From positions 71,548,001 through 71,612,000 of the forward strand of contig CM059432.1 of the NCBI GenBank assembly GCA_030390025.1: DNA of 64,000 bases, written 5' to 3'. Each line of letters starts with the position of its first letter. Positions within the stretch are counted from its first letter, which is position 1. The stretch comes from Squalus acanthias. Taxonomy: Eukaryota. This document shows, piece by piece, positions 8,200 through 63,717 of the stretch. The notes beneath the pieces are model-generated. The model was not told the DNA's origin. It did not search any database and was given only the letters and a program-made list of their open reading frames with translations. A program made the translations under genes and the position numbers.

Positions 8200-9223
8200 A
8201 TGCAAGACTGAGAGGCCTTACCCACCTAGGGTCTTCTCCTATCGCCACCTAAGCCAGGAGCAGTGTATTCAGCAGCTCCGCTTCACCAAGGAGATGGTCA
8301 CAGAACTCTGCCACGTCTTGGAACCAGATCTGCAGCCTCGGAGCAGGGTGACGGCGGCACTGCCAGTTGCCCTCAAGGTCACCGTGGGCCTGAAATTTTT
8401 TCACCAGTGGATCCTTCCAGGCTGGAATAGGCGTGTAACTAACATCTCCCAGTTCGCCGTCCATTGTTGAATACGTGAGGCCACAGAGGCTCTGTAATCC
8501 AGGAGAAGGGACTTCATTGTCTTCTCTCTGAAGAGAGAGAAGCAGGAGCAGCGTGAATGTGGCTTTGCCAGGATATCGGGTTTTCTCATGGTGCAGGGCG
8601 CTATTGACTGCACACACGTGGCTTTACGGGCACCGCATATCAATGCTGAGATGTACCGTAACCGCAAAGGCTACCACTCTCTTAAAGTGCAGTTGGTTTG
8701 CGACCACGCCCAGCACATCATCATGGTGAATGCCCGGTATCCTGGCAACAGTCATGATGCCTTCATTCTGCACCAGTCCGGTGTGCCAGCAATCTTCCAG
8801 CCACCACATTGAACCCGAGGGTGGCTGTCCGGAGACAAGGGCTATCCACTCTACACCTGGCTGATGAATCCCCTCCACAAACCCACCACTCGTGGACAGC
8901 AATTATATAATGAGAGCCATGCTGCCAAGAGGAACCTCATCGAGCAGACCATTGGGGTGCTCAAGCAACGGTTCCATTGCCTTGACCACTCGGGAAGAAC
9001 TCTCCAGTACTCACAGGAGAGGGAGTCCCAATTCGTGGTAGTCTGCTGCATCCTCCACAAATTGGCCATAATGAGGGCGCAGTCCTTGCCACCACGGGTT
9101 CCGTCACCACCTCAGGAGGAGGAGGAAGAGGAAGAGGAGGAGGAGGAAGGGAGGAGGCAGGCTGCAAATTCCTGTTCCGGATGGGCTGTCTGTGAGCGCA
9201 TCATCAGTCTCTGCTTCCCCTAA
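8200..9223 (+). pseudogene. Harbinger (HARBI1-like) DDE transposase pseudogene
   Basis: Fragments [53 protein letters not shown] and a poly-E tail are split over several frames with in-frame stops. Confidence 0.9.
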
Positions 9224-9394
9224 ATGAAACCCCAGATCCCCTTTGCTCAACACTTCCCCACGTTACCATCCCTCTGTCACAGAACATCACAGGGTCCTCT
9301 TGGGCACAATGCTGAAAACAAACATTCCAAACATAATTTATAAATGATTAATTCCAATATTAAATTACAAAAGTCAACTAATTACCCTTGCGCA

Positions 9395-10790
9395 TTCCCT
9401 TAGTGTCTGTCTTTCGTGTTCCTTTGCCTATTCTAGTGCTCCTACGCAGTGCTCCCTCAGTGGCTGTAGCATGGCTGGTGGAAGGCTACTGACTTTCTGT
9501 GGGGGGAGACTGCAGATGGCCTTGCAGAACGACCTCGAGCAGCTCTGTGTCTAGAAGGCCCGGCTGTAGACTGCACCACCTCGGCATGTGTGGCAGCAGT
9601 CTGGGCTGGCTGGCTGACAGGCAACCGCAAGGGAACTGGCGGAGTGGCAGTGGTGGAAGTACGAATGCTGTCATCCTGAGAGAGGACAGCAGGTTTGTGC
9701 TCCACGGAACCCCTCCCACTCCCCTGAGGCGGCGCCTCAGCATTCCTAGCCATCTGTTGGAGGACAGATTGCTGGGCTGCTGTGAGATCCTGCAAGCCCC
9801 TTTCCACACTCGTAAACCCAGCCACGATGGCAGCAGTCTGATCTTGCACGGCAGCTGTCTGATCTTGCGTGGCAGCAAGCTGAGGCTGCATGACAGAAGT
9901 CTAAGCACTGCAGCACTCAGACGTTGGGACTCTTCCGCTTGTGCTGCAATGGAAGCTGCGACATTGCCCATCACACCCAGCATCATGGTTGGGTCCACAA
10001 GTGCCCTAATGGAGTTGCCCATTACTTTCATCCTGAAAATCATGGACTCCGCGCAATGCCCCGTGAAATGTTAGTGCTGAACTCCTCCATGCTCCTTGAC
10101 ACTGACAAGAGGCTCTCTGGCAGGCCTACCATTGCACCAAGCATTTCTGTGTGCATGCCCATCACCATACTTCTGAAGGCCACCTCATCGAAGTCCTCAT
10201 CTGAGTCTTGTGCAGCAGAACTCGCATGCGACCTCGCCCTCCGGGGAGCTGGCACCTGCGCTACCCTTTCCCCCTGCCCTGGCTGCAGCCCACTCGTGCC
10301 TGTAACTCAACATGTGCAGATCCCGCCTCTATACTACCTTCTAAAGTTTGCGCAGTGCCATTTTATGAGCTGGTCCCTGGGAGTGTCAGATCGAGTGACG
10401 GTGCCTCTTCTTCACCATCAATAAACTCCTTTACTTCTTCAGGCTGGGCTGGTGGCAGTTCTTGGGTATCTGAAAGGAGAAAGGCACAAAGGTCGGGTTG
10501 TGGTAAGGGGAGGTGGGAAAGTAAGATGTGCATGTTTACACCATCAGCAGCTTGTAAGTGAGAAGAAATTGTGGGAGGAGGGGGAAGTGAGATGTGAGAA
10601 AAAGGATTAGGTATGAACATACTGTCATCATCAATGCTTTCAGCCTTGCCGATCACCACGGCCTCAATGATGACCCCACCAATGATCTCCAGCACAGTCT
10701 CCTCCAGCTGGGTCAGGTTTGGCAGCCTTGCTTGCCCCCATCTGTTTGTTCCTGCTCGTGCCGGCTGTGAGCCACCTTGGCCTGCAAGAG
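9395..10790 (-). pseudogene. Harbinger Myb/SANT partner gene, exons 2-3, decayed; SANT exon absent
   Basis: Peptides LTQLEETVLEIIG, GMHTEMLGAM, AVLSQDDSI and AGPSRHRAARGR match the partner genes at 55691-57506 and 59845-61830. Convergent with the transposase. Confidence 0.8.
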
Positions 10791-23469: not shown

Positions 23470-25628
23470 GGGGGGGAAAATTTGTGTGCACCAACAAATG
23501 TGCCGTGTCACCAGCAACTCGAGTTGACAGACACTGAAAATGACCGCAGTGCTACCGGTGAAAAATTCGCCCTGGGGTTTGGCGATGTGTAGCACAGCGC
23601 TAACTTACCATGCAACGCCCTCCTAGTGGCGTTGATGGAGGCCTCTGACCCGAAGTTCCTGTCCACAGTCGGCGTTGCATCTTCTTACAGCCTGTGGGAG
23701 CGAGCCTGTGGAGTTCCCAAGGCATTGTGGGCAATTAAAGGGGCTATGAATTAAAGGGCCAATGCATTCAGACCTAATACAAATTACAATGCAGTGAAAA
23801 AATGCGGCTTTCAGCCCTTACTGCCTTTCAATAAAAAAACTACCATTATAAAGAAGTCCCAAATGGGATTCTTCAGCACTTAAAGCTGAGTTCCCTTCCA
23901 AGCCTCAAAAAATGAGAAAAGTACTTCAGCACTAACACAAATGGCTCAGCAAGCCAGGAAAGGGGCACCAAGCACTCCAGCTTTGTGCAAGGGGTCAACA
24001 CTGCAAGAGAGGTCCTCTACCCACAGGGGCCAGGAGGCCCCCAGAAATAAGGAAGTGATACCAGATCACTGAGGCCGTCACTGCCAGCAGTGTCGCCCCC
24101 ACCACCACCTGGCTCCAGTGCCCAAAGAAGCTTCATGACCTCAGACCACTGGCCAAGGTCAGTGAATACATCTTCAAAAGCTGTCTCCTACCAACTGCAT
24201 CACCAGCCTCACACACTGCTCAATGCTCGACTTCCCCCCCGCCGCCAGCCCTGAATCACCTACCAACAATCTGTACCAATCATGAGGCACATCTTCCATT
24301 CCTAGCCTCACCTCACCCCCTTGGAGGAGATGGTGCTGGCCATTCTTGTCAGGGGCATGGCTGAGCCCTTGGCCAGCAGCGGGGCTGAAAGGATACAAAA
24401 TGCTGGTATCCTCATACGTTATCCTCCTTCTCGCATGCACCTCTTGCTTTCCCACCCTCCCCTCAACACAACTCCACCCTTGTGCCTTCCTCATTTCACA
24501 CACCCAAGAAATGCAGCCTGCCCAGCCAGTGGGTGACCAAGAAGAGGGAGAGGGGAGTGAAGAAGAAGAAGAAGATTGATTTGACACTCGCAGCCACCAG
24601 CTCCTCAAGGTCGACCAGCAAGGCCATCTGCAGTGTCCCCCATTGAAAGTCAGCAGCCTTGCACCAGCCATGCTGCAGCCACTGGGGTAGCACTGTGTGA
24701 CATCAGTAGGATAGGCAAAGGCACACACAAGACAGTCTCTAAGAGAATGTATAAGGGGGATGAGTTGATTTCTTGATGTCATATTAGATGGATAGATGTA
24801 TAAAGTTGGAATGGAAAGTTTGCCTTGTGTTGGCTCTTATTTCAGCATCATGGCCAAGAGGATGCTGTGATGGTTAGTAACAGATGGAAGGTAAGGTGTG
24901 GTACTAATGTTGAAAGGGAAATTGGGGTTGTGATCACTGGTACCATAGGCAGATCATTCCATCCCGGATATCCCGGCCACAAAGGGGCTGCCTGGGATGC
25001 ATCCTTCCGTCTGCTGCTTCCTCTTCTGCGTCTTCCTCTTCCCTCTGCGAGCAGATACTGTCAATCTGAAATGACAGCATAAAATGCTGGAAATACTCAG
25101 CAGGTCAGGCAGCATCCCAACTTGTTTCTCTCTCCATGGATGTTGCCTGGCCTGTTGAGTATTTGCAGCATTTTCTGTTTTCTCAGAGGCCTTCTTTTAC
25201 CATCCAAGGTCTTGCAAGCCTCCAGCAGCACTCCGTGCACACTTAAAAAAACTTTTAACATCTATTGCAGCAACTCACTACTTCAATAAAATTAAAAATA
25301 CCTAGTCCAAAAGCTTAAATGCAAACTTACCTGAAAGAAGTGTATGTACTTTAAGAGGTGCTGACAGCACCTCTGTCAGTCTGCTTGCAGGCTAGGTTTA
25401 CCTGGCATGCTTCGGACCCAGCAGGGTCAAAGTTCGCAGTGGTGATGTTAAGCACCACTCTGCCACTTTTTTTTCAGGGCCGCTACTTCGGAACAGCAGC
25501 ACTACCGGGACGTTAAAAATGGTGGACACTGTGGGACTCGCCACCAGCTGGCGGAAGAGCGGACACCGCCGCTTTCTTCACTTAACGGTGCACTCACGGG
25601 TGGCGCTAAGGGAGGGAATTTCTCCCCC
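23470..25628 (+). mobile_element. Family-B Harbinger derivative
   Basis: GGGGGGGAAAATTT ... GGGAATTTCTCCCCC. Colinear with 383-2180 and 10905-11968. Contains the hairpin at 25081-25174. Confidence 0.8.
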
Positions 25629-30914: not shown

Positions 30915-31936
30915 GGCCATGATTTTGCCAGCGCTCAAAGGGCGGCTTCGGAGGCGGGTCAGGTGTTAAATTCAAAATGATTGACAGCAGGTTTGGAACC
31001 CGCCGCGAACCCGCCTCCACGCCAGTTTCCAAAGTGTCGGTTCTGCGCCTTCACAGCAGACCCGACACAAAGCGGTGGGAGAGACACTTAAGGTTGTTAA
31101 CAGCTTGTTAACTCCTTGTTAAATGCTATTTTGCCAGGGTAATTCCATTGTCACACATTTTCAATGTGTTTCACGTCGTTCAGCAACCACGCCAGCTGAG
31201 TGTGTTGGGTCTTCCAACGAACTAAATAGTTCACAGCTGCAAGTGCTGCATATAAACTTACCAATCACATCAGTTCATTTTCAAATGGCTGAAGTTGCTG
31301 AATTCATGATTTGTAGGACACCTTTGAGCTATATTGAGGTTGTAAGTGTGTGCTGTGAGCTCCATATGCACTGTCACCTCCTCGGAATAAGCTCTCTCCC
31401 CATTGACATACTCATGATAACATCTCATCCTCAACTGCCAGATATAATGGCAGAATGGGAACCATTTATACTCTCGCATCCTGGTCCTCCGATTCGGAAG
31501 AGGATCATCCGCGGCAGCAGCAGAACCAGGCACAGCAGCAGCACCAACAAGAGCGCCAACCTTCTCTTCAGCCGTCGGATGCTGCCCAGGGCAGAGGCCA
31601 TCAGGGCTTGGCTGGCCCACGCTGCAGGAGATACCCCCAAAACAGGGTTTACAGGCAGAGGATGAGCTTCCTCAACATGAGTGAGCAACACTGCCAAAGG
31701 AGGCTGAGACTTTCTCGAGAGGTAGTCGCAGACAACTGCTCAATGCTGGACCAAGACTTGCAGCCCAGAGGAGCGGGTGGACATGCCTTACCAGTGGCTG
31801 TCAAAGTCACCACTGCCCTCAACATCTTTGCGCAGGGTCCTTCCAGGAATCAGCAGCAGACATTAGCGGCATCTCCCAGTCGGGCACCCACAGATGCATC
31901 ACGCAGGTTACCAATGCCCTCTTTGCAAAGTCTGCC
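30915..31936 (+). mobile_element. 5' part of a different Harbinger family with truncated transposase N-terminus
   Basis: TIR-like GGCCATGATTTT. Peptide [34 protein letters not shown]...[12 protein letters not shown], then frameshifted and truncated. Confidence 0.8.
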
Positions 31937-32005
31937 AATCAGAACAGCTCAGGCTCAGACCTGCCTTCTCAGAACCTTTATTAGATCTGATTGACTCAAA
32001 ATATG

Positions 32006-45338: not shown

Positions 45339-47466
45339 GGGGGAGAAATTCCCTACCTTATCGCCACCTGGTTGAGCTGCTATCCTGGCGAAAAATGGCG
45401 GTCGCCACTCTAATGCCTTTCTCTGACGTGGGACTCGGCGGCCGCCATTTTGGTGAGGGCCTTAGCGGTGCCGATAGCAGCGCTGGCCCTGGAGATGTAA
45501 ATGGGGAGAACATAAGAACATAAGAAATAAGAGCAGGAGTAGGCCATACGGCCCCTTGAGCCTGCTCCACCATTCAATAAGATCATGGCTGATCATCGAC
45601 CTCAACTCCGCTTTCCTGCCTGATCTCCATATCCCATGATTCCCCTACAGACCAAAAATCTATTTATCTCAGCCTTGAATATACTCAAAGACTCAGCATT
45701 CACAGCCTTCTGGGGCAGAGAATTCCAAAGATTCACAACCATCTGAGTGAAGAAATTCCTCCTCATCTTAGTCTTAAATGGCCTACCCCTTATCTTGAGA
45801 CTATGCCCCCTAGTTCTAGACACTTCAGCCAGGGGAAACAACCTCTCAGCATCTACCCTGTCAATCCCCTTCAGAATCTTGTATGTTTCAATGAGATCAC
45901 CTCTTATTCTTCTAAACTCCAGAGAGTATAGGGGAGAGCATGACATCAGTCAGCGAGCAACACCAACTTAACGTCATGCTCTGCGAACTTCGACCTTAGC
46001 GTTGAGTTTAGCGCTGGGTCCTAAGCTCGCTCTGAAAAGCCAACGTTCAGCAGACTGACAGAGACATTGTCAGCACTTCTTAAAGGGACACACACACACA
46101 TCCTTCAGGTGAGTTTGCATTTAAGCTTTTGGACTGGATTTTTTTTTATTTTATTGAAGTAGTGGCTTGGTGCAATACAGGTTAAAAGTTTTTTAGGTGT
46201 GCAGGGAGTGCTGCTGGATGCTTGCACGTCAGGCAGCATCTATGGAGAGAGAAACAGAGCTCACGTGCTGCCTGATGTGCTGAGTATTGCCAACATTTTC
46301 TGCTTTTATTTCAGATTTAGAGCTTCCGCTCACAGAGGGAAGAGAAAGACACAGAAGAGCAGGAAGCAGAAGAGGAGGAGGCAGAAGAGGAGAAAGCAGA
46401 AGGAGGGATGCATCCCAGACAGCCCCTTTCTGGCCGGGATATCCGGGATGGAATCATCCGCCTGCGGTACCGGTGACCAAAACCCCAATTCCCCTTTCAG
46501 CATTAGTCCTGCACCTTACCTGCCCTCTGTTACTGACCATCACAGCCTCCTCTTCGCAACAATGTTGAAATAAAAGCCACCATAAAGCAAACTTTCCAGC
46601 TAGGAATGGGAGGTGTGCCTCATGTTTGGTACAGTTTGGTAGGTGAGTGATTGGGCGATGGGGGGGGTGGGGGGGGGGCGGGGGTGGGGGGCAGTTGGTG
46701 TCGCGCATTGAGCAGTGTGTGAGGCTAGTGGTGCAGTTAGTAGGAGACGGCTTTTGAAGATGCATTCACTGTATTTGACCACTGGTCTGAGGTCATGAAG
46801 CTTCTTTGGGCACTGAACCAGGTTGTGGGGGTGACACTGCTGGCAGTAACGGCCTCGATGATCTGGTCCCACATCCTTCTTTCTGGAGGGCCTCCTGGCC
46901 CCTGTGGGTAGAGGACCTCTCTTCCAGTGTTGACCCCCTGCACAAAGCTGGAGTGCTGCGTGCGAGACGCTGAGTGCCTCTTCCCTGGCTTGTTGAGCCA
47001 TTTGTGATAGTGCTGAAGCACTTTTCCCATTTTTTTTAGGTGCGGAAGGCAATGCAGCTTTAAGAGCTGAAGACTCCCATTTGGGAATTCTTTTTAATGT
47101 TAATTATTTTTCAGAAGGCAGTTGAGCTGTAAGGGCTAAAAACTGTATATTTTTACATCATTTTTATTTTTTTTAATTTCGGAAGGCATTTCCCCTTTAA
47201 GAGAATGAACTGCTTTCTGAAAGGACAGCCTTGCTTTAAGAGAAGACTGTTCTTGCTGCAGTGATGCTATGGCCATGCTACATTGGGGCCTCCTGCCAGG
47301 ACGAACGCCACCAGAATAGCGTTGCACTGTAAGTTTAGCACTGGGCTAATGTTAATTAGCCACCAGCGGCAATTTACCGGTCCTGCCAGCGCCACCATTT
47401 TCAGCAGCAGGTAACAGCAGCCCACGGTGGCACCAGCAGGTTTTATCGATATCAAATTTCTAGGCC
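45339..47466 (-). mobile_element. Family-B Harbinger derivative (reverse orientation)
   Basis: GGGGGAGAAATTCCC ... AAATTTCTAGGCC. Myb remnant RRPPERRMWDQIIEAVTA on the - strand. Confidence 0.8.
45510..45930 (-). mobile_element. CR1 3' fragment nested in family-B element
   Basis: LYSLEFRRIRGDLIETYKI. (TTCTTATG)-type tail. GGGGAGA flanks both sides. Confidence 0.9.
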
Positions 47467-49147: not shown

Positions 49148-50038
49148 GGGGGAAAAATGTGGTTGCTTTGTGCCTCACGTTAGCGCCCTGAGAGGACGCT
49201 AATGAGGTGCAAAGCAACTAGCGCCCGGGCGCGACGATGTTTGCGCCGCTCACAAAATTGACCAGACATTTTGCAGCGGCGCTAAACACTACCGCCATGA
49301 TCTCCTGCGCCCGCAGATCGTGACGTCAGTCGAGCGTGCAATGCCCCGGTAGTGCCCTGAACCGGATATTGAGTGGCACCCCCTGCCTTACTGCCTGCCG
49401 CTAGCAATGACAGGTTGAGGGGAACGTTTTGCAGTCAGGAAGGGACTGGGGGAGCGCTATTTAAAGGCGGCCGCTTCCTGTCTTTTTTTGTCAGTGACAT
49501 TTTTGCACCACGCATTCTGAGAGAGAGAGAGAGACTTCTGGAGAGATTCAATGCTGTGTGAAGGAGTTTTGGGTACTGAGCAGCTCTTTGCAGGTTCATT
49601 TTGATTTGACCTTCCTTGCATCGATTTAGAAGAGACTTTGGGGGCTGCACTCTGAGCTCTTTCCCTGGGCCTCTACATTGTTCTTTCCAGCAGACTTGAT
49701 GTACAGGTCACTCCAGGCCGAGATTCAAGGCTGCAATGAGCAGGGTGTGGATGGAGAGCAAGATCGACCCTCCCCTTTAAGAACTGGCCGGCGTCATTGT
49801 GTCTGTGTTCCATTGCTGACTGACATTACATGAGCTTCGCCAGCGCTCTGAGGTAGCGCCTCGCTCCTCGGCGTTAGCGCCTTAAGAGAGGTGTGTAGCA
49901 CCTGATTTAGCGCTCCAATCACCTCCAGGGGCGATAGAAGCCAAGTCTGCAGTCGGAGGTGATAATTAGCGCCAGGCGCTAAACTTTGCGCCCGGCCGAT
50001 AATTGCGCCCCAAATGGGGTGATACCGAATTTCTCCCC
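49148..50038 (+). mobile_element. Harbinger MITE (same deletion junction as 4625-5517)
   Basis: GGGGGAAAAAT ... AATTTCTCCCC, flanked by TTT on both sides. Termini match 53255-57867. Junction GCTGCACT|CTGAGC at ~49651. Confidence 0.9.
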
Positions 50039-51209
50039 TTTTGACTTTGGGAACTACAACGATAGCTGCTGTCATCATATGTAAAAATCTTAAATAACCT
50101 TTTACTAAGATCTATGACCTTACCTTTAAGAGGGATGTGTGGTCAGTAAGTATTGCAAATTGGTCTGCCAGGAGGAACACTTTTCCCTGGATCATATGGA
50201 CTGTGCAAGAATATCAAATCCTATTGGGTTGTAGCTGGAACTTCTTGTAACTGATGATGAATCCAAGCCTTCGTACTGCATTGACTATTTGTCATACAGC
50301 TACAGTGGCAAATCTCAAGAACAAGGCTCAGACATTTAGGTACAGATTTACTTGGAGACATTGCATCTATTGAAAGGCACTTTGTGAAAGCCCTGGATGC
50401 TGACAAAAGAGCCTTGTACTAACAACTTTGTTCCTTGAAATTTAACTTGAGAAACTTCTGATTGTGTTCCCATATAGTGATATGGAAGTAGGTATCTTTT
50501 AGTCCTATGCTAGATAACCAGTCTCCTGAGCATAATGCCTGGATAATCTGTGGTAGTGTTACCATCCTGAATTTATTGGTTGAGTGTGGGAGCTCCGAAG
50601 AGGATTGTTGTCATAGCAAATATACGCCATTTTTTTTTCAAATCTTTCCCATCAATAGGTGGTCATAATAGCTATTGCTGTACCTCTCATGAGAATGACA
50701 CTAAACACAGCCATGCTAGTCTGTGGAGCAATATATCAAAAGCCATGTATCTTGTTGAGTCTAGGGTGTTTCTTATTACAGTGTAACAGCTTGCACTTCA
50801 CCTTCAATTAGTGTAGCAACAGATTTTGAAAATGCTTCAATCTGTTTTAGCAGCTGCCTAGAGATATGTGCTCTTTTATTGAACAAATCATACTCCATTA
50901 GACTTAGTAGCATGCTATCCTAATCTAATTCGACTGTTGGTGGTAAATTCAATGGCTGAGTACATCCATTTACTTGGATTCTTGGTCAGAAGTCCAGCGG
51001 TGCTTATCTCTTTCGAGGTGGACTTCCTATACAATCAAGTCTGTGACTAGTACACTTGATAAGACTTCCTTTTAATCAAGGTTGATTTTGTACGTTGGTC
51101 TATTTTAAAGTTAGATGTGTTTAATTTGCCCAGATTTTTGCAACCATGGTTCATAGGGATGAGCTATAAGGTTTCCTGTAACAGCTGCCTTCTGAGGATC
51201 TGAAGGAAG

Positions 51210-52284: not shown

Positions 52285-54441
52285 ACCTACATATGGTGGA
52301 AAGGGGGGAAGTGGAGCACATAGGATGGGGAACCAAAGGCACAGTTGGAAGAGGAGAGTTTTCAGAAGGTTTTTAAAGCAGGAAAGGATGTAGTACAGCA
52401 TAGGGAACTGAGTAGAGAGTTGCTGAAGGCAGCAGCGCAATGACTGGACAAGCACTCCCAAATGGTGGAGTACAGGGACCGAGGGGCAAGGAGAAGGGTG
52501 GTATTAGAGGAATGCAGGGTTCTCAGGCAGGCAGAGATAACTAAGGTAATGGGATAAAGCAATGATGAGATTAGAAAACAAGGGTGGGAATTTTGAAATA
52601 AACATGCTGAAGCATGGAGGCCAATGGAGCTTGTGGAGGGCCTGCCTGCGGCGAGGGTCACACATTCCTCCCGCAACCCGGGACTTAAAATACTGGCCGG
52701 CATGAATATGGTGTGAAGTTGGAAGGCAGGACACTGCCTCTACTTCAACCACACCTTGTTCTGTTTGGGCATGGGGGTTAGAATCGGCCCTTTTGTTTGT
52801 TTTAATGCAGAGAATATATTGCCTGGGACAGTGCTGGAGAGCATACTGAATGTTAAGATTCCATTTGTGCCTTAGTCCCTTGTAAGCTATTGTTCCTGTT
52901 TATTTGTTTCTCCTTGCTTTATTTGCTTTCTATAAAGGGATTCCCTGTCTCCTAGCAGGGAATGAATTTTGCAGGGAACACATCAATAATGTTTGGTTAA
53001 TCTAACCTAATCCTTGTAGAAAGGCTGGGACTTTGTCCAAAACAAAGGCAGCAAAGTGCTGTTCATTGGAGATAAACAAACTGGCACAATGTTCATATGA
53101 CTCAGGAATATGACACCACATGCAGCATCAGCAATCTGCAATGTCACAAGGGCATTTCCATATGTATTCTCAGAACATGATTTCCTTTGCACCGATAAAG
53201 TTAGGTTAGACTTCTAGGGGGAGAAATTCGGTATAACCCCGTTTGGGGCACTAAGGGGAAAAATTCGGTTGATTAGCGCCTCCCGTTTGCGCCCTAAGAG
53301 CAACTAGCGCCCGTGCGCGGCAATGTTTGCGCAACTCGCAAAATTGACCAGAGATTTTGCGGCGGCGCTAAACTCTATCGCCACGAACTCCTGCGCCCAC
53401 AAATCGTGACGTCAGTCGAGCGTGCAACACCCCTGTGGCGCCCCGGACCGGATATTGAGTGGTGCCCCCTTCCTTTCCGCCTGCTGCTAGCAACGACAGG
53501 GAGAGTGAAAGGTTTTGCAGTCGGGAAGGGGCTCGGGGAGCGCTATTTAAAGGCGGCCTCTTCCTGCCTTTTTTTGTGGGAGACATTTTTGCACCACTCA
53601 CTCTGAGAGAGAGAGAGCGATTCTGAGAGAGAGAGAGAGAGACTTCTGGAGAGATTCAACGCTGTGTGAAGTAGTTTTGGCTACTGAGCAGCACTTTGCA
53701 GGTTCTTTTGGATTTGATCTTCATTGCTTCGATTGTCAAGGGACTATGGGGGCTGCACTGATTCGGGGCGTCGTCCTGCGCCTGCAGAATCAGAGGCATC
53801 AGAGACGCAGAGAGAGAGTGGCAAACATAGCCAGAGAGAGGAGGGCCAACAGGCCTCTGCACAGGAAACCTTACCCTCCCAGGGTAGTCCGGGAACAATT
53901 CTCCTACATTCATTTGTCTGAGGAGCAGTGTTTGCGCAGGCTGCGCTTCAGCAAGGAGGTGGTCACTGAGCTCTGCCACCTGCTGCAGCCAGATCTGCAG
54001 CCTCGACTGAGGATCAGGACGTCTCTGTCGGTGGCAGTGAAGGTCACAGTGGCTCTGAATTTTTATGCCACCGGCTTCTTTCAAGCAGCTACTGGGGACA
54101 TCACCAATATCTCCCAGTTCACGGTCCATTGCTGTATCCGGGAGGTGACAAATGCCCTCTATAAAAGGAGACGCCAGTACATCTCTTTCCCGATGACCCG
54201 GGCCAAACAACATGAACGTGCATTTGACTTTGCAAGGATAGCGGGCTTCCCCATGGTGCAGGGCGCCATTGCCTGCATGCATGTGACATTTTCTGAAACC
54301 GCAAGGGCTACCACTCCTTAAATGTCCAGTTGGTCTGTGACCACAGCCAGCTGATACTCGCCATCAATGCCCGCTATCCTGGCAACAGCCATGATACTTT
54401 CATCCTGCGCCAGACTGGTGTGCCAGACCTTTTCCAAGCAC

Positions 54442-55069
54442 ACTGAGACAACGTATGAACGGACACCGCGCAACAATCGCCAGGCAGGATTGTTACCTCC
54501 CAGTTGGGGAACACTTCAGCAGTCAAGGACATTCAGCCTCGGATCTGCGGGTTAGCGTTCTCCAAGGCGGCCTTCGAGACACACGACAACGCAAAATCAT
54601 CGAGCAGAAACTGATAGCCAAGTTCCGCACCCATGAGAACGGCCTCAACCGGGATCTCGGTTTCATGTCACGCTACAGGACGTGACTAGAGTCGAGGCTA
54701 GAGTCCAGACTAGAGTCGTCGTTGTCTTGTTCACAGATGTGATTTCCAGTTTTAAAAAAAAAGTAAAAAGCTTAACTGCAGACTGCAGCATTTGACACGT
54801 TGGACCCCCTGTGACCCCACCTCATTGTCTTAGCTGTATTCTGCTGTGTCTTTGATGTAATGCCTCCCTGACGGATTGTATCTCTGCAGACACATTGTCC
54901 TCTGTCTATATATGCTTTGTAACTGATTCGTAGTCCCTCACTGTACCTGACGAAGGAGCAGCGCTCCGAAAGCTCATCATTTCAAATAAAACTGTTGGAC
55001 TATAACCTGGTGTTGTGTGACTTCTCATTTTTGTCCACCCCAGTCCAACACCGGCATCTCCGCATCATG
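54442..55069 (+). mobile_element. Penelope-like retroelement 3' fragment (GIY-YIG endonuclease C-terminus and terminal repeat)
   Basis: LRQRMNGHR...VGEHF...GH...RKIIEQKLI.KF.T...GLNRDLG. TATA-like site ~54905, hammerhead motif, AATAAA 54985-54990. Confidence 0.88.
54943..54980 (+). ncRNA. Minimal hammerhead ribozyme motif (stem I degenerate)
   Basis: CUGACGA-A-GGAGC-AGC-GCUCC-GAAA-GC-UC, predicted cleavage after C54975. Confidence 0.7.
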
Positions 55070-55690
55070 GCCACTACCAGGAACATCATTGAGCAGACGA
55101 TCGGCGTGCTCAAGCAACGGTTCCGCTGTCTGGACCACTCAGGAGGAGCCCTGCAGTACTCTCCTGAGCGAGTCTCCCTCTTCATAGTTGTGTGCTGCAT
55201 TCTTCTTAACCTGGCAATCCTCAGGACCCAGCCAATGCCACCAGGCATTGGTGCACCACCGGAGGAGGCGGAGGAGGCGGAAGAGGATGATCAGCAGCAG
55301 CATCAAGGCAGGAGGGAGGCCCACAATGTTGAAACTGCAAGGGCCGTCCATCAATGGCTGATAACAAGCCGCTTCTAGGCCCCTACTGAGAAGATGGCTT
55401 CTGGCATGGAGAACAACATGATGGAAAGCAATCCGCAACCCCTATAGCTGGCCAAGGCAGCAATGATTCCAAAGGCCAAACCTGTGCATTTTGAATACAA
55501 CAACCTTTTTATTTTACAAACTCTGTGTATGTCATTTATTCATGACAAACTAATAGAAACAAACACAACAAATCATTAATTTACATAACTGGTTCTCACA
55601 AGCTGGAGATAATGGCCAAAACACTAAACAAAAGTTATCAGACGAACCTCGGCCTTTAATAAAAACATTCCCAACATTTCTTGAGACCTT

Positions 55691-57506
55691 CTACTTTTTG
55701 CCCTTTGAGGGTGATCTCCATCCCTTGCGCACTTCCGCCCTTCCCACCCTACTGCTCCTCCATAATGGGGCCCCAGTGGCTGCAGCAAAGCTGGCGGAAG
55801 GCTGCTGATTGTCAGATCCTGAGACTACAGATGCCCTTGAAGGACGCCCTCGACCAGCTCTGGGCCTGGAGGGCCCGGCTGCAGACTGCACCAACTCTGT
55901 ATGGGCGGCTGTGTTGCAGGCGGTGGCAAGTGCAATGGGAAGTGACAGTGGTGGGAGCAGGAATGCTGTCATCCTGAGAGAGGACAGCACCTCCCTGCTC
56001 GACCGACACACTGGTGATCCCACGGGGCAGCACCTCAGCATCCGGAGCAATCTGCTCGAGCACAGATTGCTGGCCTGCTGCAGCGCCGTGAGAGCCCCAG
56101 GGCAATGTGGCCGAACCAGCGACGATGACAGCAGTCAGTGCTTGCGTTGCCTCAAACTGAGACTGCATGAGAGCAGTCTGAGATTGGATCACAGCAGCCA
56201 GTAACTGAATTGCAGCACTAAGCAGTTGCGTTGCATCCGCCTGTGCTGCAGCGGACTGCTCCACACTCCTTGCCAGTCCATCAATGCTTTCGGGCACCCT
56301 TCCCATTGCACCCATGAACTCAGTGTGCATGTTCACTGCCTGGGTGTTCATTTCAGCGATGAGCCACTCCTCCTCTGCGTCCAGTGCAGCAGGACTCGCT
56401 GGCCTGCTCTCCCTCCGGGGAGAAGGCCCCCGAGCTTCCCTACCCCCATCGCGTTGCTGCAGCCCGCTGGGTCCCGGAGCTTCACCCTCATCAGACCCTT
56501 CTGCCCTGCTCCCCTCCAGGGAAGACGTGGTCCCTGTGTGGGCATGGGCTTCCTCGGGAGAGGGTGGCACTGAGGTTCTGGCTTCCTCTTCCTCCTCGCC
56601 TGCGACTGCGCTCCCACTGGCTGGTTGAGGGCCCGAGAGTCTCCTCAGCTGGTGAATCACCATCTGAAAGCAGGGAGGTACAAGAGTGGCTTTAGCGTGA
56701 GGACAGGGGGGCAGTAAGGGAGCAAGGTCTGGAGCAATTTAGTCAGTTGGATTGAAAGTGTAAAAGGCTTGTGTTGTGAGGGATAAGTGGAGTGAGAGAG
56801 GAGAGAAAGCTGATGACCTTACCATTGCTGTCCCGAACAGGGTCGGCCTCTTCAGGAGCGACGGGACCAATCACCCGGCTTGCCACAATCCTGTGGACGT
56901 GCGCCTCAAGATCGCTGAGGGGTTGCAGCTGAGGCAGCCCTCCACCCGTCCGTTGCTGCTGCCGCCTGTTATGAAATAGCTTGGCCTGCAAGGAAAAGGA
57001 CGGCGTCTGAGTAAATATGCAGCCATGTGCTTACCTGATGTGCCTCCCATAGTTGAATAGCCCTTAATGTATGCTGCCAGGTGCTTGTCTGATGTGCCTC
57101 CCATAGTTGAACAGCCCTTAATGCATGCAAGGTGTGGAATGTGCGTGTGTGTTTTATGAGATGGCCATAGGTCTTGGATGAGTGTTGGGCATTGGGGTTT
57201 TTACACCCTCTGGCCATAGAGTGAGGTTGAGATGGAGAGATGGAGTGGTATTGAAAAGCAGCCACTCACCCTGACCACCCGAGTGAGGTCGTTGAACTTT
57301 TTCTGACATTGTGTGTGGGTCCTGGGCACCATGCTCCTGGAGGAGACGTGCTGAGCCACCTCCCTCCACACTCTTCTATAGTCGCGGGGCAATGGCCTCC
57401 TGCCACTCTCTGGGTACAGTATTGATCTTTGGTGCTCCACTGCGCCAACCAGAGCCACCAAGGCCCGGTCGCTGAAGCGCTGAGCTTGTTCCCTGGCCCT
57501 CTCCAT
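55691..57506 (-). pseudogene. Myb/SANT partner gene of element 2 (exons 57506-57270, 56985-56823, 56663-55691)
   Basis: GT-AG sites and exon sizes (237, 163 nt) are identical to element 1. 4-bp insertion near 56640 and a deletion near 55935 frameshift exon 3. Confidence 0.85.
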
Positions 57507-58050
57507 ATTCCTTTGCAGCAGCTTTGAGGTTGAGGTCTCTCCAGGCCGAGATTCAAGGCTGCAATGAGCAGGTGGTGGCTGGAGAGCAAGATCGACCCTC
57601 CCCTTTAAGAACTGGCCGGCACCAGTGTGGCTGTGTTCCATTGCTAACTGACATCACCTGAGCTTCGCCCGCGCTCTGAGTTAGCGCTTCGCTCCTCGAA
57701 CTTTGCGCCTTAAGACAGGTGTGCAGTGCCTGGTTTAGCGCTGCAATCACCTCCAGGGACGAAAGAAGCCAAGTTTGTAGTCGGAGGCGATAATTAGCGG
57801 CAGGCGCTAAACTTTGCACCCAGCCGATAATTGCGCCCCAAACGGGGCGATACTGAATTTTTCCCCCTAAAACTTTAAGGGGTAAAAATTCACTTGGTTG
57901 CGCCTCCCGTTAGCGCCTTAAGAGGGCTCTAATGGGGCGTTAAGCCGCTAACGCCCGGGCGCAGCGCTGTTTGCGCCGCTCGAGAACTTAACTTGAGATT
58001 GTGCGGCGGCGCTAAAACTTACCGCTGCGACCACCTGCGCGCGCAGATTG

Positions 58051-58195
58051 TGACGTCATTCCATGGTGCAACGCCCTTGGGGCGCCCCGGAGCGGAAATT
58101 GAGTGGCGCCCCCTGCCTTACCGCCTGGCTCTTCCAACGACCGGAAGACTGGAACGTTATCAATCGGTGTGGGGCTGGGGGGGGCGCTATTTCAA
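58051..58195 (+). promoter_or_regulatory. Putative transposase promoter (CRE, ETS-like, TATA-like)
   Basis: TGACGTCA 58051-58058, CGGAAAT ~58093, TATTTCAA 58188-58195. CRE and TATTTAAA are conserved at 53407/53544, 49321/49458 and 5338/5201. Confidence 0.55.
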
Positions 58196-58389
58196 GGGGG
58201 CCTCTTCCTGTCTTTTTCTGTGGTCGACATTTATGCACCACTCGTTCTGAGAGAGAGAGAGAGATTCGGGGAGAGAGAGAGAGAGACTTCTACATTGACT
58301 CAACGCTTTGTGAGGTAGTTTTGCCTATTCATCCTAACTTTGTTGCTACTTTAGTTGCTGTACCTCATTACTTTTCTGGCAAAGAGAAT

Positions 58390-59550
58390 ATGGGGGCTGC
58401 AATGATTGGGGGCGTCGTCCTGCTCCAGCTGAATCGGAGGATACAGAGACGCAGACAGAGAGTGGCAATGATGGCCAGACGGAGGAGGGCCATCAGGCGC
58501 ATGTACAGGAGAGCTTACCCTCCCAGGGTATATCGTGAACAGCTCTCCTACATCCATATGTCCGAGGAGCTGTGTTTGCGGAGGCTGCGATTCAGCAAGG
58601 AGGTGGTCACTGAGCTCTGCCACCTGCTGCAGCCAGATCTGCAGCCTCAGCTGAGGTCCAGGACGTCTCTGTCGGTGGCAGTGAAGGTCACAGTGGCTTT
58701 GAACTTCTACGCCACTGGCTCATTCCAAGCTGCTGCTGGGGACCTCGCCAATATCTCCCAGTTTGCGGTGCATCGCTGCATCCGTCAGGTCACCAATGCC
58801 CTCTTCAGAAGGAGACGAGACTTCATCTCTTTCCCTATGACCCCAGACAAGCAGCGTGACCGTGCTCTGGGCTTTGCGAGGGTAGCGGGCTTCCCCATGG
58901 TGCAGGGCGCCATTGACTGCACGCATGTGGCTTTGCGTGCTCCGCGAGAGAATGCAGAGGAATTCAGGAACAGGAAGGGGTTCCATTCCTTGAATGTGCA
59001 GTTGGTCTGTGACCACAGACAGGTGATACTCGCTGTCAATGCCCACTATCCGGGCAGCTGCCACGATGCTTTCATCCTGCGCCAGACTACTGTGGCAGAA
59101 GTTTTCGAGGCACCGCATCAGCCAGTTGGTTGGCTTCTGGGGGACAAGGGGTACGCATTGAGCACCTGGCTGATGACACCGCTCCGTACGTCAAACACCC
59201 CTGCTGAGCTGCGGTACAATGAAAGCCATCAAGCAACCAGGAACATTATTGAGCGCACAATCGGCGTGCTGAAACAACGGTTCCGCTGTCTGGACCATTC
59301 CGGAGGAGCCCTGCAGTACTCGCCTGAGCAAGTTTCGAACTTCGTAGTCGTGTGCTGCATGTTGCACAACATGGCAATCCTCAGGACCCAGCCAATGCCA
59401 CCAGGCCTTGTAGCACCACCAGAGGAGGAGGAGGAAGAGGAGGAAGAGGACGAGGACGATGATCATCAGCAGCACCAAGGCGGGAGGGCGGCCCACAATG
59501 GTCAAACTGCAAGGGCCGTCCGTCAACGACTAATAGCAAGGCGCTTCTAG
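58390..59550 (+). CDS. Intact Harbinger DDE transposase (HARBI1-like, 386 aa)
   Basis: Uninterrupted ORF from the conserved ATG (MGAA). HTH region, [35 protein letters not shown], acidic tail. Confidence 0.93.
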   Translation: MGAAMIGGVVLLQLNRRIQRRRQRVAMMARRRRAIRRMYRRAYPPRVYREQLSYIHMSEELCLRRLRFSKEVVTELCHLLQPDLQPQLRSRTSLSVAVKVTVALNFYATGSFQAAAGDLANISQFAVHRCIRQVTNALFRRRRDFISFPMTPDKQRDRALGFARVAGFPMVQGAIDCTHVALRAPRENAEEFRNRKGFHSLNVQLVCDHRQVILAVNAHYPGSCHDAFILRQTTVAEVFEAPHQPVGWLLGDKGYALSTWLMTPLRTSNTPAELRYNESHQATRNIIERTIGVLKQRFRCLDHSGGALQYSPEQVSNFVVVCCMLHNMAILRTQPMPPGLVAPPEEEEEEEEEDEDDDHQQHQGGRAAHNGQTARAVRQRLIARRF

Positions 59551-59844
59551 GGCCCCTGCCATTGCTACAAACACTAATCAACCCAGCACGCAACCCCTAA
59601 GCCGGCCAAGGCACCAATAATTCCAAGCACCAGCCATGTATATTTTGAAAACAGAAACTTATTTATTTTACAAACTCTGTGTGTGTCAATTCCTCATGAC
59701 AAACTCATAGAAATAAACACAAAAAAACAGTCAATAACATAACTGGTTCTCACAACCTGGAGATAATGTCCAAAACACTAAACAAAAGTTGGACCACGAC
59801 CCTCGGCCTTTAATAAAAAAATGACCAGCATTTTGGCACACCTC

Positions 59845-61830
59845 CTACTTTTTGCCCTTCGAGGGTGATCTCCTTCCCTTGCGCACTTCCCCCCTTCCAA
59901 CCCTACTGCTCCTCCGTAATGGGACCTCAGTGGCTGCAGCAAGGCTGGTGGAAGGCTGCTGCTCGTCAGACCCTGACACTGCAGATGCCCCTGAAGGACG
60001 GCCTCGACCACTTCTGGGCCTGGAGGGCCCGGCTGCAGACTGCACCAACTCTGCATGGGCGGCAGCAGTCTGTCCTACAGGCGGTGGCAAGTGCAGTGGA
60101 GAAGTGACAGTGTTGGCAGTAGGAATGCTGTCATCGTGAGAGAGGACAGCAACTCCCTGCTCGCCCGACACACTGGCACTCCCACGGGGCAGCACTTCAG
60201 CATCCGGAGCAATCTGCCGGAGAACAGATTGCTGGCATGCTGCGGCGCGGTGACAGCCCCGGGGACATGTGCACGAACCATCGAGGTTGGCAGCAGTCTG
60301 TGCTCGCGTGGCCTCCATCTGAGTCTGTATGAGAGCAGTCAGAGGTGGGATCACGGCAGCCAGTGACTGAATTGCAGCACTAAGCGTTAGTGTGGCATCC
60401 GCCTGTGCTACAGCGAAGTGCTCCACACTCCTTGCCAGTGACTCAATGCATTCAGGCACCCTTCCCACTGCACCCATGAGCTCAGTTTGCATGCCCACCG
60501 CCTGGCTGTTCATTTCTGCAATCAGCCGCTCCTCCTCTGCGTCCATTGCAGTAGGAGTGTCTGGCATACTCTCCCTCTGGGGAGAAGGCCCCCGTTCTTC
60601 CCTACCCCCCCCCATGGCGTTGCTGCAGCCCACTGGGTCCTGGAGCTTCACCATCATCAGCCCCTTCCCCCCTGCTCCCCTCCGGGGAAGGCGTGTTCCC
60701 AGTGTGGGCATGGGCTTCCTCGGGAGAGGGTGGCACTGATGCTCCGGCTTCCTCTTCCTCCTCAGCTGCAGCATCACTCCCAGTGGCAGCTTGAGGGCCC
60801 GTCTCCTCAGCTGGTGAATCAGCATCTGAAAGCAGGGAGGTACAAGAGTGGCTTTAGCGTGAGGACAGGGTGGCAGTAAGGGAGGAATAAGTGCAGCGAG
60901 TTAGCAAGTTGGATTGAAAGTGTCAAAGGCTGGTATTGTGAGGGACAAGTGGAAGGACAGAGGACAAAAAGGTGATGACCTTACCATTGCTGTCCACAAC
61001 GGGGTCGGCGTCTCCAGTGGCGACGGGACCGATCACCCGGCTTGCCACAATCCTGTGGACGCGCTCCTCCAGATCGCTGAGGGGTTGCAGCTGAAGCCGC
61101 CCTCCACCCGTCCGTTGCTGCTGTCTCCGATTATGAGCCAGCTTAGCCTGCAAGAAAAAGGACAGCATCTGAGTAAATATACAGCCATGGTCTTGCCTGA
61201 TGTGCCTCCCATAGGTGAATAGCCCTTACAATATACAGCCATGGTCTTGCCTGATGTGCCTCCCATAGGTGAATAGCCCTTACAATATACAGCCATGGTC
61301 TTGCCTGATGTGCCTCCCATAGGTGAATAGCCCTTACAATATACAGCCATGGTCTTGCCTGATGTGCCTCCCATAGGTGATTAGCCCTTACAATATACAG
61401 CCATGGTCTTGCCTGATGTGCCTCCCATAGGTGAATAGCCCTTACTGTATGCAAAGTGTAGAATGTGTGTGTGTGTTTGATGAAAGGGCCATAGGTGTTG
61501 GATGAGTGTTGTGCATTGGGGTTTTAAGACCCTCTGGCCATAGAGTGAGGTTGAGATGGAGGGATGGAGAGGTATTGAGAAAAAGCCACTCACCCTGACG
61601 ACCCGAGTGAGGTCGTTGAACTTTTTGCGGCATTGAACATGGGTCCTGGGCACCATGCTCCTGGAGGAGACGCTCTGAGCCACCTCCCTCCACACTCTTC
61701 TGAACTCGCGTGGCAAAGGCCTCCTGCCACTCTCCGGGAACAGCATACATCGTCTGCGCTCCACTGCGTCAACCAGAGCATCCAAGGCCCGCTCGGTGAA
61801 GCGATGAGCGCGTTCTCTCACCCTCTCCAT
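59845..61830 (-). CDS. Myb/SANT (trihelix) partner gene, 3 exons (61830-61594, 61147-60985, 60825-59845); one frameshift in a G9 run
   Basis: MERVRERAHRFTERALDALVDAV...W.EVA...RTHVQCRKKFNDL. Canonical GTGAGT/GTAAG donors and YAG acceptors with compatible phases. The spliced frame hits TAG at 60604-60602. Confidence 0.85.
61177..61446. repeat. Intronic minisatellite, 5 x 54 bp
   Basis: Unit ATATACAGCCATGGTCTTGCCTGATGTGCCTCCCATAGGTGAATAGCCCTTACA, near-perfect. Two diverged units at 57015-57120. Confidence 0.97.
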
Positions 61831-63717
61831 GCTTGGCAGCAAAATGGATTACAGGTCTCTCCAGGCTGAGATTCAAGGCTGCAATGAGCAGGGTGTGGCT
61901 GGGGAGCAAGTGGCCCCCCCCCCCCGCTTTAAGAAGTGGCCGGCGCCAGTGTGTCTGTGTTCCCTCGCTAACTGGCAGCAGCTGCGCTGCGCTCGTGCGC
62001 TGAGTTAGCGCCTCACTCCTTGGCCTTTGCGCCTTAAGACAGGTGTGCCGCGCCTGCTTTAGCGCTCCACTCACCTCCCGGGGCGGTAAAAGTGAAGTTT
62101 CCTGTCAGTGCCGATAATTAGCGCCAGGCGCTAATATTTGCGTCCGGACGATATTTGCGCCCCAAATGGGGCGCGACCTAATTTCTACCCCTAAAAGTTG
62201 AAAAATTAGCGCCAGGTGCTAATCAGTCTCACCTACCACAAAATTGAGTTTTAGCGCTCCAAGAGGGAAGTGGAGCACTAAATCAAGCGCTAACCACTTC
62301 TCTTAGGGCGCTAAAGTCTGAGAGCGGGGTAGTAGTGGCAGAGCGCTAAACAATTTCAAGCGTATTGTAAACGCCACTCTTTCATCACAGAGGCTGCTTC
62401 CCTCGCTTAAAGGGAAGGGCCAATGATACTGCACAAGCTAGTTGTCATCACTTCTGTTTTGCAAGGCAACCTGGGCAACTGCCATTACAGCCCTAAAGAC
62501 TTTCACAAAGTGGAGGGCTTGGACATCTTGCACCAATGAAGCATTAAAAACTTTGCACAGACTGGTGCAAATAATAAAGGTTGCACTGGCTGAAAAGCAT
62601 TCCCTTTAATTACCGCTCTCGAAGCGGCCAGCCGAGTTCACTGGCGTTGTCGGCGCAAGGCGATAAAGCACGGGGCGAGAGTCAATTTTCCATCCGGGGC
62701 AATAACGGGGCACTGCACTCTTTATGACGTTACGATCTGCGAGGTGCTAGAGGCCCAGGCGCTAGCGGTAACAGGCACTGAAGTTCACGGGCGTCGCTGC
62801 ATTCACCACGCCCGGCCGCTAACCCATTAACGCCCCCGCCAGGAGCTAACATACCGAATTTCTAGCTCTCTATAGTTTGTGGTGGATGTAAAATGAGAGT
62901 GCATTTTTAATTGAAATGAAGTTGTGCACAAATAATATGCAGATGCATTTTGACATGATTTACGCTGTGAGTTTAAAATCAGAATCACTCACTGACTGAT
63001 GTCCAATTTAGATAATTTCCTTGAATATTTTTATAACTTCAGAGCAGGAACACAATATTGCATTAATAGATGCCCTGCTTTGCCTGTGGTAATATGATTG
63101 TGCTGTGACTTTATTACTGATGAATCACTACAATGGCTATCAGCTATTAATTCTCCTTACAATCTTATATAATAAAATAGATCTTCATGATCTTACTGAA
63201 GGGCATTTCTCTACAAAATGACTATGTGGAATTTGTTGCCATCATGTATTTTATGTAGAAAGTTTTATTCAGTGATGTCCTGAATAGGGAACACTCTCCT
63301 CGTCTTACTTTATCACATAAAAGATTATGTTTGTCAGTCCAACTGTTTTCAGCTATTTCATTGGTCCATGTTAATTACTAGACTGGTTTTCAAGGACCCA
63401 TCAGATGCAAGTGCTGCACTCTCCAGCCTCTGCTTTGCTCCCCTACACATCTGTGTTCTATTCCCTGGACCCACCCATCTTCTGATTTCTGCTCTCCACT
63501 CTGCTGTGCTTCTGTGTTCCATTTCACTGCCTCTGCTGTGCTCTGCTCATCGCCCTTCCAGCCCAGTCGAGCCCAGATGCCACACTCTCACACCCCAACT
63601 CCCAGTTTCATTCCCAGCCAGGCTGGAGGGAAAGTCATTGATGAAGCAGCTGAAGATGGTTGGGCGCAGGATGCTGCTCTGAGGAACTCCTGCAGCAATG
63701 CCCTGGGGATGAGATGG

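Follow-up and report, generated by a model that had tools for sequence, protein, structure and literature searches.

A two-gene Harbinger element inside an older MITE

The window, that is, the whole 64,000-nucleotide stretch of Squalus acanthias DNA that was analysed, contains a PIF/Harbinger element (element 3, E3) with the following boundaries and surroundings:

57879..62191, plus strand: PIF/Harbinger element (element 3), 4,313 bp, delimited by its terminal inverted repeats (TIRs) and TAA duplication
57876..57878, plus strand: left target-site duplication, TAA
62192..62194, plus strand: right target-site duplication, TAA
57879..57890, plus strand: left TIR, 12 bp
62180..62191, minus strand: right TIR, 12 bp
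53255..57867, plus strand: neighbouring element 2, ~78-84% alike to element 3, with a TAA duplication, G5 at the run and both genes decayed
62195..62868, plus strand: right part of an older Harbinger-type MITE, other pieces of which lie at 53217-53254 and 57871-57878

Element 3 has the TIRs, the 3-bp TWA target-site duplication (TAA on both sides) and the two genes, a DDE transposase and a Myb/SANT second gene, by which PIF/Harbinger elements are recognized, and the preliminary description was right to call its TIRs and duplication intact. The left and right TIRs match at 11 of 12 bases, and their pattern occurs 7 times in the 64-kb window, where 0.23 matches are expected; the left/right asymmetry appears to be a family trait, since a short element at 4625-5517 has the same one. 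Elements 2 and 3 were inserted into the older MITE 8 bp apart: the MITE pieces align gap-free over both junctions to short elements at 4625-5517 and 49148-50039, and taking out element 3 with one TAA restores a collinear MITE. The TAA inside the MITE would have been a preferred insertion site; it is flanked by T and A, and some related short elements in the window sit at AAA or TTT sites. Membership in NuwaI (CWG duplication) was ruled out by the TAA duplication, and that in NuwaII (C|TNA|G target) by the flanking bases. A domesticated gene of the HARBI1, NAIF1 or MSANTD kind, single-copy and without TIRs or duplication, was ruled out by the TIRs, the TAA, the related copies in the window and the very high read depth.

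The two genes are convergent, the partner gene having three exons on the minus strand:

58390..59550, plus strand: DDE transposase open reading frame, single exon, from the ATG at 58390 to the stop at 59550, 386 aa, with D176, D252 and E288
61594..61830, minus strand: partner exon 1, Myb/SANT domain, 79 aa (PF13873, E 1.3e-9)
61148..61593, minus strand: intron 1, 446 bp, GT-AG
61176-61445, within intron 1: 54-bp minisatellite, 5.0 copies
60985..61147, minus strand: partner exon 2, 163 bp
60826..60984, minus strand: intron 2, 159 bp, GT-AG
60602..60825, minus strand: exon 3 up to the premature stop (acidic low-complexity linker, G run, stop codon)
60605..60613, minus strand: G9 run (C9 on the plus strand), one base longer than in the in-frame G8 form
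59845..60612, minus strand: partner C-terminal half, 255 aa, out of frame as assembled (a long helical region, then a disordered part with a basic end)

The transposase carries domain PF13359 (E 3.4e-39), and its closest relatives are found in other cartilaginous fish; no solved structure resembling it by sequence was found. The DDE motifs reported earlier are all present. That the transposase as a whole is intact holds for its open frame and for its agreement at 93 of the 93 columns conserved at at least 80% among 120 homologs, but has to be qualified by four unusual residues, P152, A236, T267 and S268, which depart from residues held by 70, 85, 74 and 87 of the 120 homologs, respectively.

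In the partner gene, exon 1 appears to be under constraint, with a dN/dS of 0.42 (CI 0.21-0.82) against element 2. The splice sites, previously described as intact, are GT-AG in both introns; the intron 1 junction is shared by gene models P0124 and P0129, and one contig of run X17, which is probably RNA, joins 60985 to 18 letters matching 60808-60825. The predicted exon-3 acceptor is therefore spliced to exon 2 in this one probable-RNA contig, which speaks against the different acceptor usage that had been named as a possible objection. Alternative splicing round the premature stop was rejected by inspection of three acceptor candidates with a pyrimidine tract: the acceptor at 60929 enters the frame of the C-terminal half (the tail) but meets a stop near 60901, and that at 60576 could be reached only from a weak donor at 60736 or across an intron of 29 bases.

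The G run and the C-terminal tail of the partner

As assembled, the spliced partner frame reads CAT GGG GGG GGG TAG across the run, exactly as first reported, and stops after 207 aa, just past G9. Shifted by one base, the frame stays open to 59845, and G8 would, as proposed, restore the full frame. The long form of ~459 aa is ancestral, since shark gene models carry the C-terminal half in frame; the truncated product retains the Myb domain and the acidic low-complexity linker and lacks the helical tail. With 207 of ~459 aa encoded by the partner, the assembled copy does not have the two intact genes of an autonomous element. Element 2 has G5 at this place, as had been noted, and is no intact comparator because it is broken further down exon 3 and in the transposase. 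In all seven of the aligned relatives covering the position the run is as long as G5, which makes the longer form a recent trait of the element 3 lineage. A second run in element 3, C12 at 61914, also exceeds the length in its neighbours.

A HMMER search found homologs of the tail in 10 shark proteins, and in models from three shark genera the tail has stayed in frame; the model P0124 matches the partner collinearly from the Myb domain to the tail (residues 5-456, 37% identity, E 5e-85). Of the two alternative tail frames, one matched 1 of the 10 homologs (P0128, its C-terminal 59 aa) and the other none. Exon 3 of element 2 found zero homologs among 4,978 word-matched candidates, and an exon 1 query found one longer protein among 158 candidates, whose likeness to the tail alone (E 0.093) was not significant. 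In the predicted structure, the tail forms helices at 20-50 and 52-114, mostly with pLDDT >90, and no solved structure of matching fold was found for this model. A prediction of the complex between transposase residues 38-335 and tail residues 20-140, computed without alignments, scored 0.27, the mark being 0.34.

Between neighbouring elements, the tail shows no amino-acid constraint in these comparisons, with a dN/dS of 1.24 (0.68-2.41) against element 2 and 0.84 (0.54-1.28) against element 1; the probability of its remaining stop-free by chance is 0.16, and elements 2 and 3 are without ~45 aa of tail present in other sharks. Any importance of the tail accordingly rests on homology and analogy. 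The same near-neutral dN/dS, beside a constrained exon 1, would fit a reading in which the 207-aa product is sufficient, the tail dispensable and element 3 autonomous as it stands, and the partner of the reconstructed zebrafish Harbinger is reportedly ~220 aa long. We consider this reading highly improbable: the tail is in frame in the three shark genera and confidently helical in the model, the short form keeps merely an acidic low-complexity linker beyond exon 2, and the C-terminal region of HDP2 is required for partner binding.

Run length among copies and the origin of the ninth G

In a search of public runs, 20 rows from 12 studies, none of them listed as RNA, contain part of the stretch, with a best share of words of 0.78, at which an exact copy of element 3 is not shown in any run. 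The read comparison covered 4 of 23 runs, none of them from organisms B to G (word shares 0.35-0.51), and positions 59700-61170 only, and it reports differences from the assembly only, so G9 contigs are not displayed. Two samples of organism A, the DNA runs X1 and X2, gave the G8 form in 4 and 9 contigs, at summed depths of 33,951 and 14,964, and the G5 form in 3 contigs (798) and 5 contigs (1,062), respectively. Partner forms in frame, G8 as well as G5, are thus abundant in organism A, and the only X17 contig over the run is G5 and in frame. The G8 rows make up ~4.5% of summed depth at 60605, where the total also counts contigs that terminate within the run, and the share of G9 in the family could be large. 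From ~12% of the raw RNA run X21, 0 reads aligned, and the run pattern was absent from the metagenome contigs searched. The inspection of reads and tabulation of run lengths proposed earlier therefore yielded the G8 and G5 forms in DNA contigs and no run length anchored to the locus.

Element 3 has aged, because over 1,471 bp it differs from the rest of the family at five nearly fixed positions; at each of them the family letter accounts for at least 91% of depth in both X1 and X2 and is also the letter of element 2. Substitutions so nearly private make a very young copy less likely; three of the five are missense in the partner, and with these and the four unusual transposase residues the earlier claim that G9 is the only lesion is not established.

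We regard element 3 as a genuine copy of a very large shark PIF/Harbinger family, probably an ageing one that suffered a real +1 slip and is complemented in trans. The ninth G would then be real at this locus; there is roughly an even chance that the slip is private to this copy, and a distinctly smaller one that it was inherited from an amplified defective sub-lineage. The glycine-coding run would have passed from an ancestral G5 to G8, in frame in the abundant lineage, and to G9 by a one-base slip, upon which translation would halt at 207 aa, with the DNA-binding domain kept and the helical tail lost. By comparison with known Harbingers, the spliced ~459-aa Myb/SANT protein of the family would bind the element ends and would recruit and import the transposase, which would cut and paste the element. 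Element 3 may thus serve as a transposase donor with intact ends, its partner function being supplied in trans by in-frame copies. The initial choice between a sequencing error and an on/off switch left no place for what is likeliest, namely that one among very many ageing copies really slipped while in-frame G8 and G5 copies elsewhere make up for it.

Long-read assemblies typically retain errors of one base in homopolymers, and an assembly error, with a true C8 at the locus, both genes open and a candidate autonomous element, is the foremost rival, although an unlikely one. It is consistent with the abundance of G8 in the two samples of organism A and with the open transposase that matches all the strongly conserved columns. 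Against it, the near-private substitutions show that there was time for real mutations, and G/C runs of eight mutate much faster than single sites; moreover, the G8 run at 58177 of element 3 equals in length the C8 run at 5212 of a related short element. Even if the locus were C8, activity would be only putative, given the four unusual transposase residues, and element 3 would not stand out from its family, in which G8 is abundant already.

The other original proposal treats the run as a slippage switch or split gene in which G5 and G8 are on and G9 is off, a DNA-binding-only protein occupying the ends and repressing transposition; small amounts of full-length or tail-only protein may also arise, either through slipping of ribosomes at the G run or by initiation at an ATG, 10 bases ahead of the stop, that the G9 length brings into the frame of the tail. 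From the sequence and established knowledge, the stop lies in the last exon, where junction-dependent decay would spare the mRNA; the break separates the Myb domain and linker from the helical tail, three run lengths exist, the G9 share may be high, and in a herpesvirus enzyme mutant a G string is reported to give a net +1 frameshift. However, the long run is not conserved at the same place across relatives, as phase variation would demand, and the sole RNA-guess contig over it is G5. By chance, the ATG would fall in frame one time in three, and element 2 has it out of frame; a per-copy switch should have little effect among very many trans-acting copies. Among the literature matches listed for homopolymer phase variation with a transposase, all are on bacteria. 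The switch has thus gained no positive support, and we judge it very unlikely; equally improbable is its strongest version, in which G9 is a frequent, expressed allele and run length a dial: the family as a whole would be repressed by a DNA-binding-only protein that resists decay, and the tail would come from separate synthesis or from slipping on the G run. If true, it would be a built-in slippage brake, i.e., self-regulation of a eukaryotic DNA transposon by repeat slippage.

Relation to known Harbinger systems

As it stands, element 3 is one more decaying copy. For a cell assay of a natural two-protein Harbinger with TAA-centred targeting, the family, rather than this copy, is a sensible place to look, since its partner occurs abundantly in frame as G8 and G5 and one probable-RNA contig is spliced. 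The gain would be a wider toolbox and not a new question, because publications already describe intact vertebrate Harbingers and a reconstructed one that is active.

Close counterparts are shark models annotated as 'putative nuclease HARBI1' and uncharacterized Myb proteins (P0002, P0124, P0129), with up to 70% identity in the transposase, a collinear partner and the same exon joins; they are predictions only, from other species and subfamilies, and retain the ~45 aa missing from the element 3 subfamily. The zebrafish Harbinger3_DR is said to have a CWG target core and a partner about half as long as that of the element 3 family. Its reconstruction, which is active in human cells (Sinzelle et al. 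2008, as cited in PMC2836001, PMC3158080 and PMC9392472), resembles the mechanism proposed here in its two proteins, its Myb protein that binds the ends and imports the transposase, and its extended target preference. It is a consensus reconstruction, which a tool built from element 3 would repeat.

According to Han et al. 2015 (PMC4482050), PIF/Harbinger elements of the PHIS superfamily have a TWA duplication, DDE transposase and Myb/SANT genes and an average length of ~4.1 kb; element 3 is alike in duplication, gene pair and length (4,313 bp), but as assembled falls outside the 'potential active' class, in which both genes are intact. Harbinger-Snek, of which one sea krait has 2,263 transposase-only copies and 269 that are fully intact, is likewise a very abundant, expressed vertebrate Harbinger in which intact and one-gene copies coexist (PMC8437027). 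In that account, its one-gene forms likely arose by large deletions and the element arrived by horizontal transfer, whereas in element 3, as assembled, one base in a run puts the partner out of frame, and the closest relatives are in other cartilaginous fish. Finally, in Harbinger-1M_cIno of Caenorhabditis inopinata, the transposase and DNA-binding functions also lie on different copies and trans action was inferred; there, a DNA-binding-only branch has expanded and a fresh insertion was caught (PMC13668399).

Anatomy and insertion site of the element

The copy under study, element 3, carries two convergent genes, a transposase and a Myb/SANT partner, and comprises the following features:

57879-62191 (4,313 bp), plus strand: PIF/Harbinger element, with TAA flanks at both ends and 12-bp terminal inverted repeats (TIRs), 11 of 12 bases alike
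58390 (ATG) to 59550, plus strand: transposase open reading frame, 386 aa (PF13359, E 3.4e-39)
61830-61594, 61147-60985 and from 60825, minus strand: partner gene in three exons, both introns GT-AG
61830-61594, minus strand: Myb/SANT domain, partner exon 1 (PF13873, E 1.3e-9)

The TIR pattern has seven matches in the window, where 0.23 would be expected. The spliced partner encodes 207 aa, followed by a stop directly after a run of nine guanines (G9; 60605-60613, minus strand), and the frame one base on is open for 255 codons, down to 59845. Element 2, the neighbouring copy at 53255-57867, has five guanines (G5) at this position, and element 1, a distant, decayed relative at about 8200-10500, is likewise four bases shorter. 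Sequence anatomy and domain matches bear out the TIRs, target-site duplication, open transposase frame, GT-AG splice sites and G9-then-stop of the preliminary description, and comparison of the copies confirms the G5 it gave for element 2. The 3′ ends of the two genes may overlap, since poly(A)-like signals lie at 59712 and 59812 (plus strand) and at 59814 and 59667 (minus strand), within 59667-59814. Partner intron 1 contains a 54-bp minisatellite, with 5.0 near-identical copies in element 3 (61176-61445) and 2.1 in element 2 (57016-57129).

Elements 2 and 3 were inserted 8 bp apart, head to tail, at two TAA sites at the end of one older Harbinger-type MITE of about 720 bp (53217-62868). When both are removed, each with one TAA, a 720-bp MITE remains, and its alignment with the short elements at 4625-5517 and 49148-50039 is gap-free across both junctions. 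Around TAA, the sequence flanking element 3 forms a palindrome and fits A-N-N-Y / R-N-N-T, a motif fully matched, by eye, at three of the four insertion sites examined; an extended target preference is described as established for the Harbinger group in PMC2836001. The two short elements, which are non-autonomous and about 900 bp long, have ends in common with elements 3 and 2 (91% over 398 bp for the left end shared with element 3), and their duplications are AAA and TTT, not TWA. The element 2 transposase is split by inserted sequence of at least about 430 bp (54441-55076) and also has a 28-bp deletion.

The long form of the partner

The predicted exon-3 acceptor agrees with one contig of X17, a run whose RNA label is a guess: exon 2 extends to 60985 and is followed by 18 letters equal to 60808-60825 at 17 of 18 places, the sole mismatch being the family letter at 60822 (this contig is among the loose-end rows listed, with 349 more beyond these). 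Shark gene models P0124 and P0129 have exon joins at the same places, and inspection found no strong alternative splice route skipping the partner stop. When translation is continued past the break, with X standing for it, the partner and P0124 align over residues 5-456, at 37% identity (E 5e-85). An HMMER search with its C-terminal half (the tail; 59845-60612, out of frame as assembled) against 1.84 billion representatives gave 10 matches, all in three shark genera, two of them with a Myb domain ahead of the tail. AlphaFold predicts long helices over tail residues 20-114 (pLDDT mostly >90) and disorder in the remainder (pTM 0.31). By analogy, the tail may bind the transposase: the C-terminal region of HDP2 is reported to be required for HDP1 binding (PMC5339849), and citations in PMC2836001, PMC3158080 and PMC9392472 credit the zebrafish Harbinger partner with both binding and importing its transposase.

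Amino-acid constraint on the tail is absent in the dN/dS comparison, which counts against the long form as the real one. Against element 2 the values are 1.24 (0.68-2.41) and 0.70 (0.39-1.27), and against element 1 the value is 0.84 (0.54-1.28), compared with 0.42 for exon 1 and 0.49, 0.29 and 0.16 for the transposase; the probability of the tail staying stop-free by chance is 0.16. That the short protein of 207 aa is sufficient is given very little credence. Although dN/dS is near 1 over 59848-60609, the reading frame of the tail is preserved from one shark genus to another. At 0.135, the synonymous distance of the tail to element 2 is roughly half the 0.30 measured for exon 1; recombination or a constraint acting on something other than the protein may account for this. 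Compared with element 1 and other sharks, elements 2 and 3 are both missing ~45 aa of the helical tail, removed in frame (60400-60420, minus strand). In the shark gene models P0123 and P0127, partner exons are fused to a PML/TRIM-like protein and an immunoglobulin-domain protein; these fusions may be prediction artefacts or exonization.

Run length and further lesions

In two DNA runs of organism A (X1 and X2), an in-frame run of eight guanines (G8, one letter left out at 60605) is carried by four X1 contigs with a summed depth of 33,951 and by nine X2 contigs (14,964), and G5 (four left out at 60605) by three X1 contigs (798) and five X2 contigs (1,062); therefore, both in-frame forms exist in two samples. 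Depth at 60605 is 758,318 (X1) and 326,041 (X2), but it includes contigs ending inside the run and the table gives differences only, so that the G9 share is not readable and may be nil or large. The best share of exact words in any run is 0.78, and no run is demonstrated to contain element 3 itself. An assembly error, the first of two readings in the preliminary description, is doubtful.

The second, a regulated switch, is very improbable. In its favour, the partner stop lies in the last exon, G9 places an ATG (60616-60614) in the tail frame, 10 bases ahead of the stop, and frameshifting by a net +1 at a string of guanines has been described for a herpesvirus enzyme mutant. However, the long run is not conserved: in an alignment of the partner with six of the ten matches whole, a seventh represented by its C-terminal part, and element 2, the seven rows that span the run are all of G5 length and so are one residue shorter there than G8. 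The sole X17 contig over the run (guessed RNA; 248 bases, five other letters) is also in frame, with G5.

The likeliest single reading, about as probable as not, is a slip private to element 3; inheritance of G9 via a defective sub-lineage is unlikely. Most probably, the family is a standard two-protein Harbinger in whose abundant lineage the run lengthened in frame from G5 to G8 and then slipped once more to G9, and element 3, which keeps its ends and an open transposase, relies on in-frame partners from other copies.

The partner had also been described as broken only by G9. The frameshift is present in the assembly, but its exclusivity is unproven, given five near-private substitutions and four unusual transposase residues, and element 3 is old enough to have mutated. 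At 59800, 60120, 60454, 60487 and 60822, both DNA runs have another letter in at least 91% of depth; element 2 has the family letter at all five near-fixed sites, and three are missense. Among 17 sites picked from 40 of 59 difference rows, several of them subfamily differences near 50%, the family letter occurs in element 2 at 15; 12 of the 17 are missense. The transposase matches all 93 columns conserved at ≥80% among 120 listed homologs. Its residues P152, A236, T267 and S268 differ from those present in 70, 85, 74 and 87 of these 120. They may be peculiar to element 3 or typical of its subfamily; at positions 152 and 236, elements 1 and 2 both have the common residue.

Family size and comparison with known systems

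Transposase homologs number 205 at E ≤1e-60 among 4,574 candidates, and among the 120 listed, cartilaginous-fish gene models rank highest, with identities of up to 70%, which points to a shark or ray as the host. Over 59700-61170, summed word depths in X1 and X2 are 1e5 to 1e6, from 8,618 and 12,269 contigs, the mark of a very large family, although depth does not equal copy number. Runs coded as six other organisms hold 0.35-0.51 of the exact words of 57700-63200 in the word-share listing, and these shares alone raise the possibility of near-identical copies in different species. Harbinger pieces crowd the window; decayed ones from more distant subfamilies lie at 8200-10500, 376-1650, 24580-25040, 31620-31940 and 46340-46600. 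Among the literature matches listed, no title concerned the shark Harbinger family of element 3.

Element 3 is another copy of an already known element type, PIF/Harbinger. It shares the features set out for such elements in PMC4482050, but as assembled does not have both genes intact, the test applied there. Harbinger expression has been reported in fish (PMC9179366). One sea krait is reported to hold 269 fully intact versus 2,263 transposase-only Harbinger copies (PMC8437027), and a nematode Harbinger family is described in which the two functions are divided between different copies (PMC13668399).
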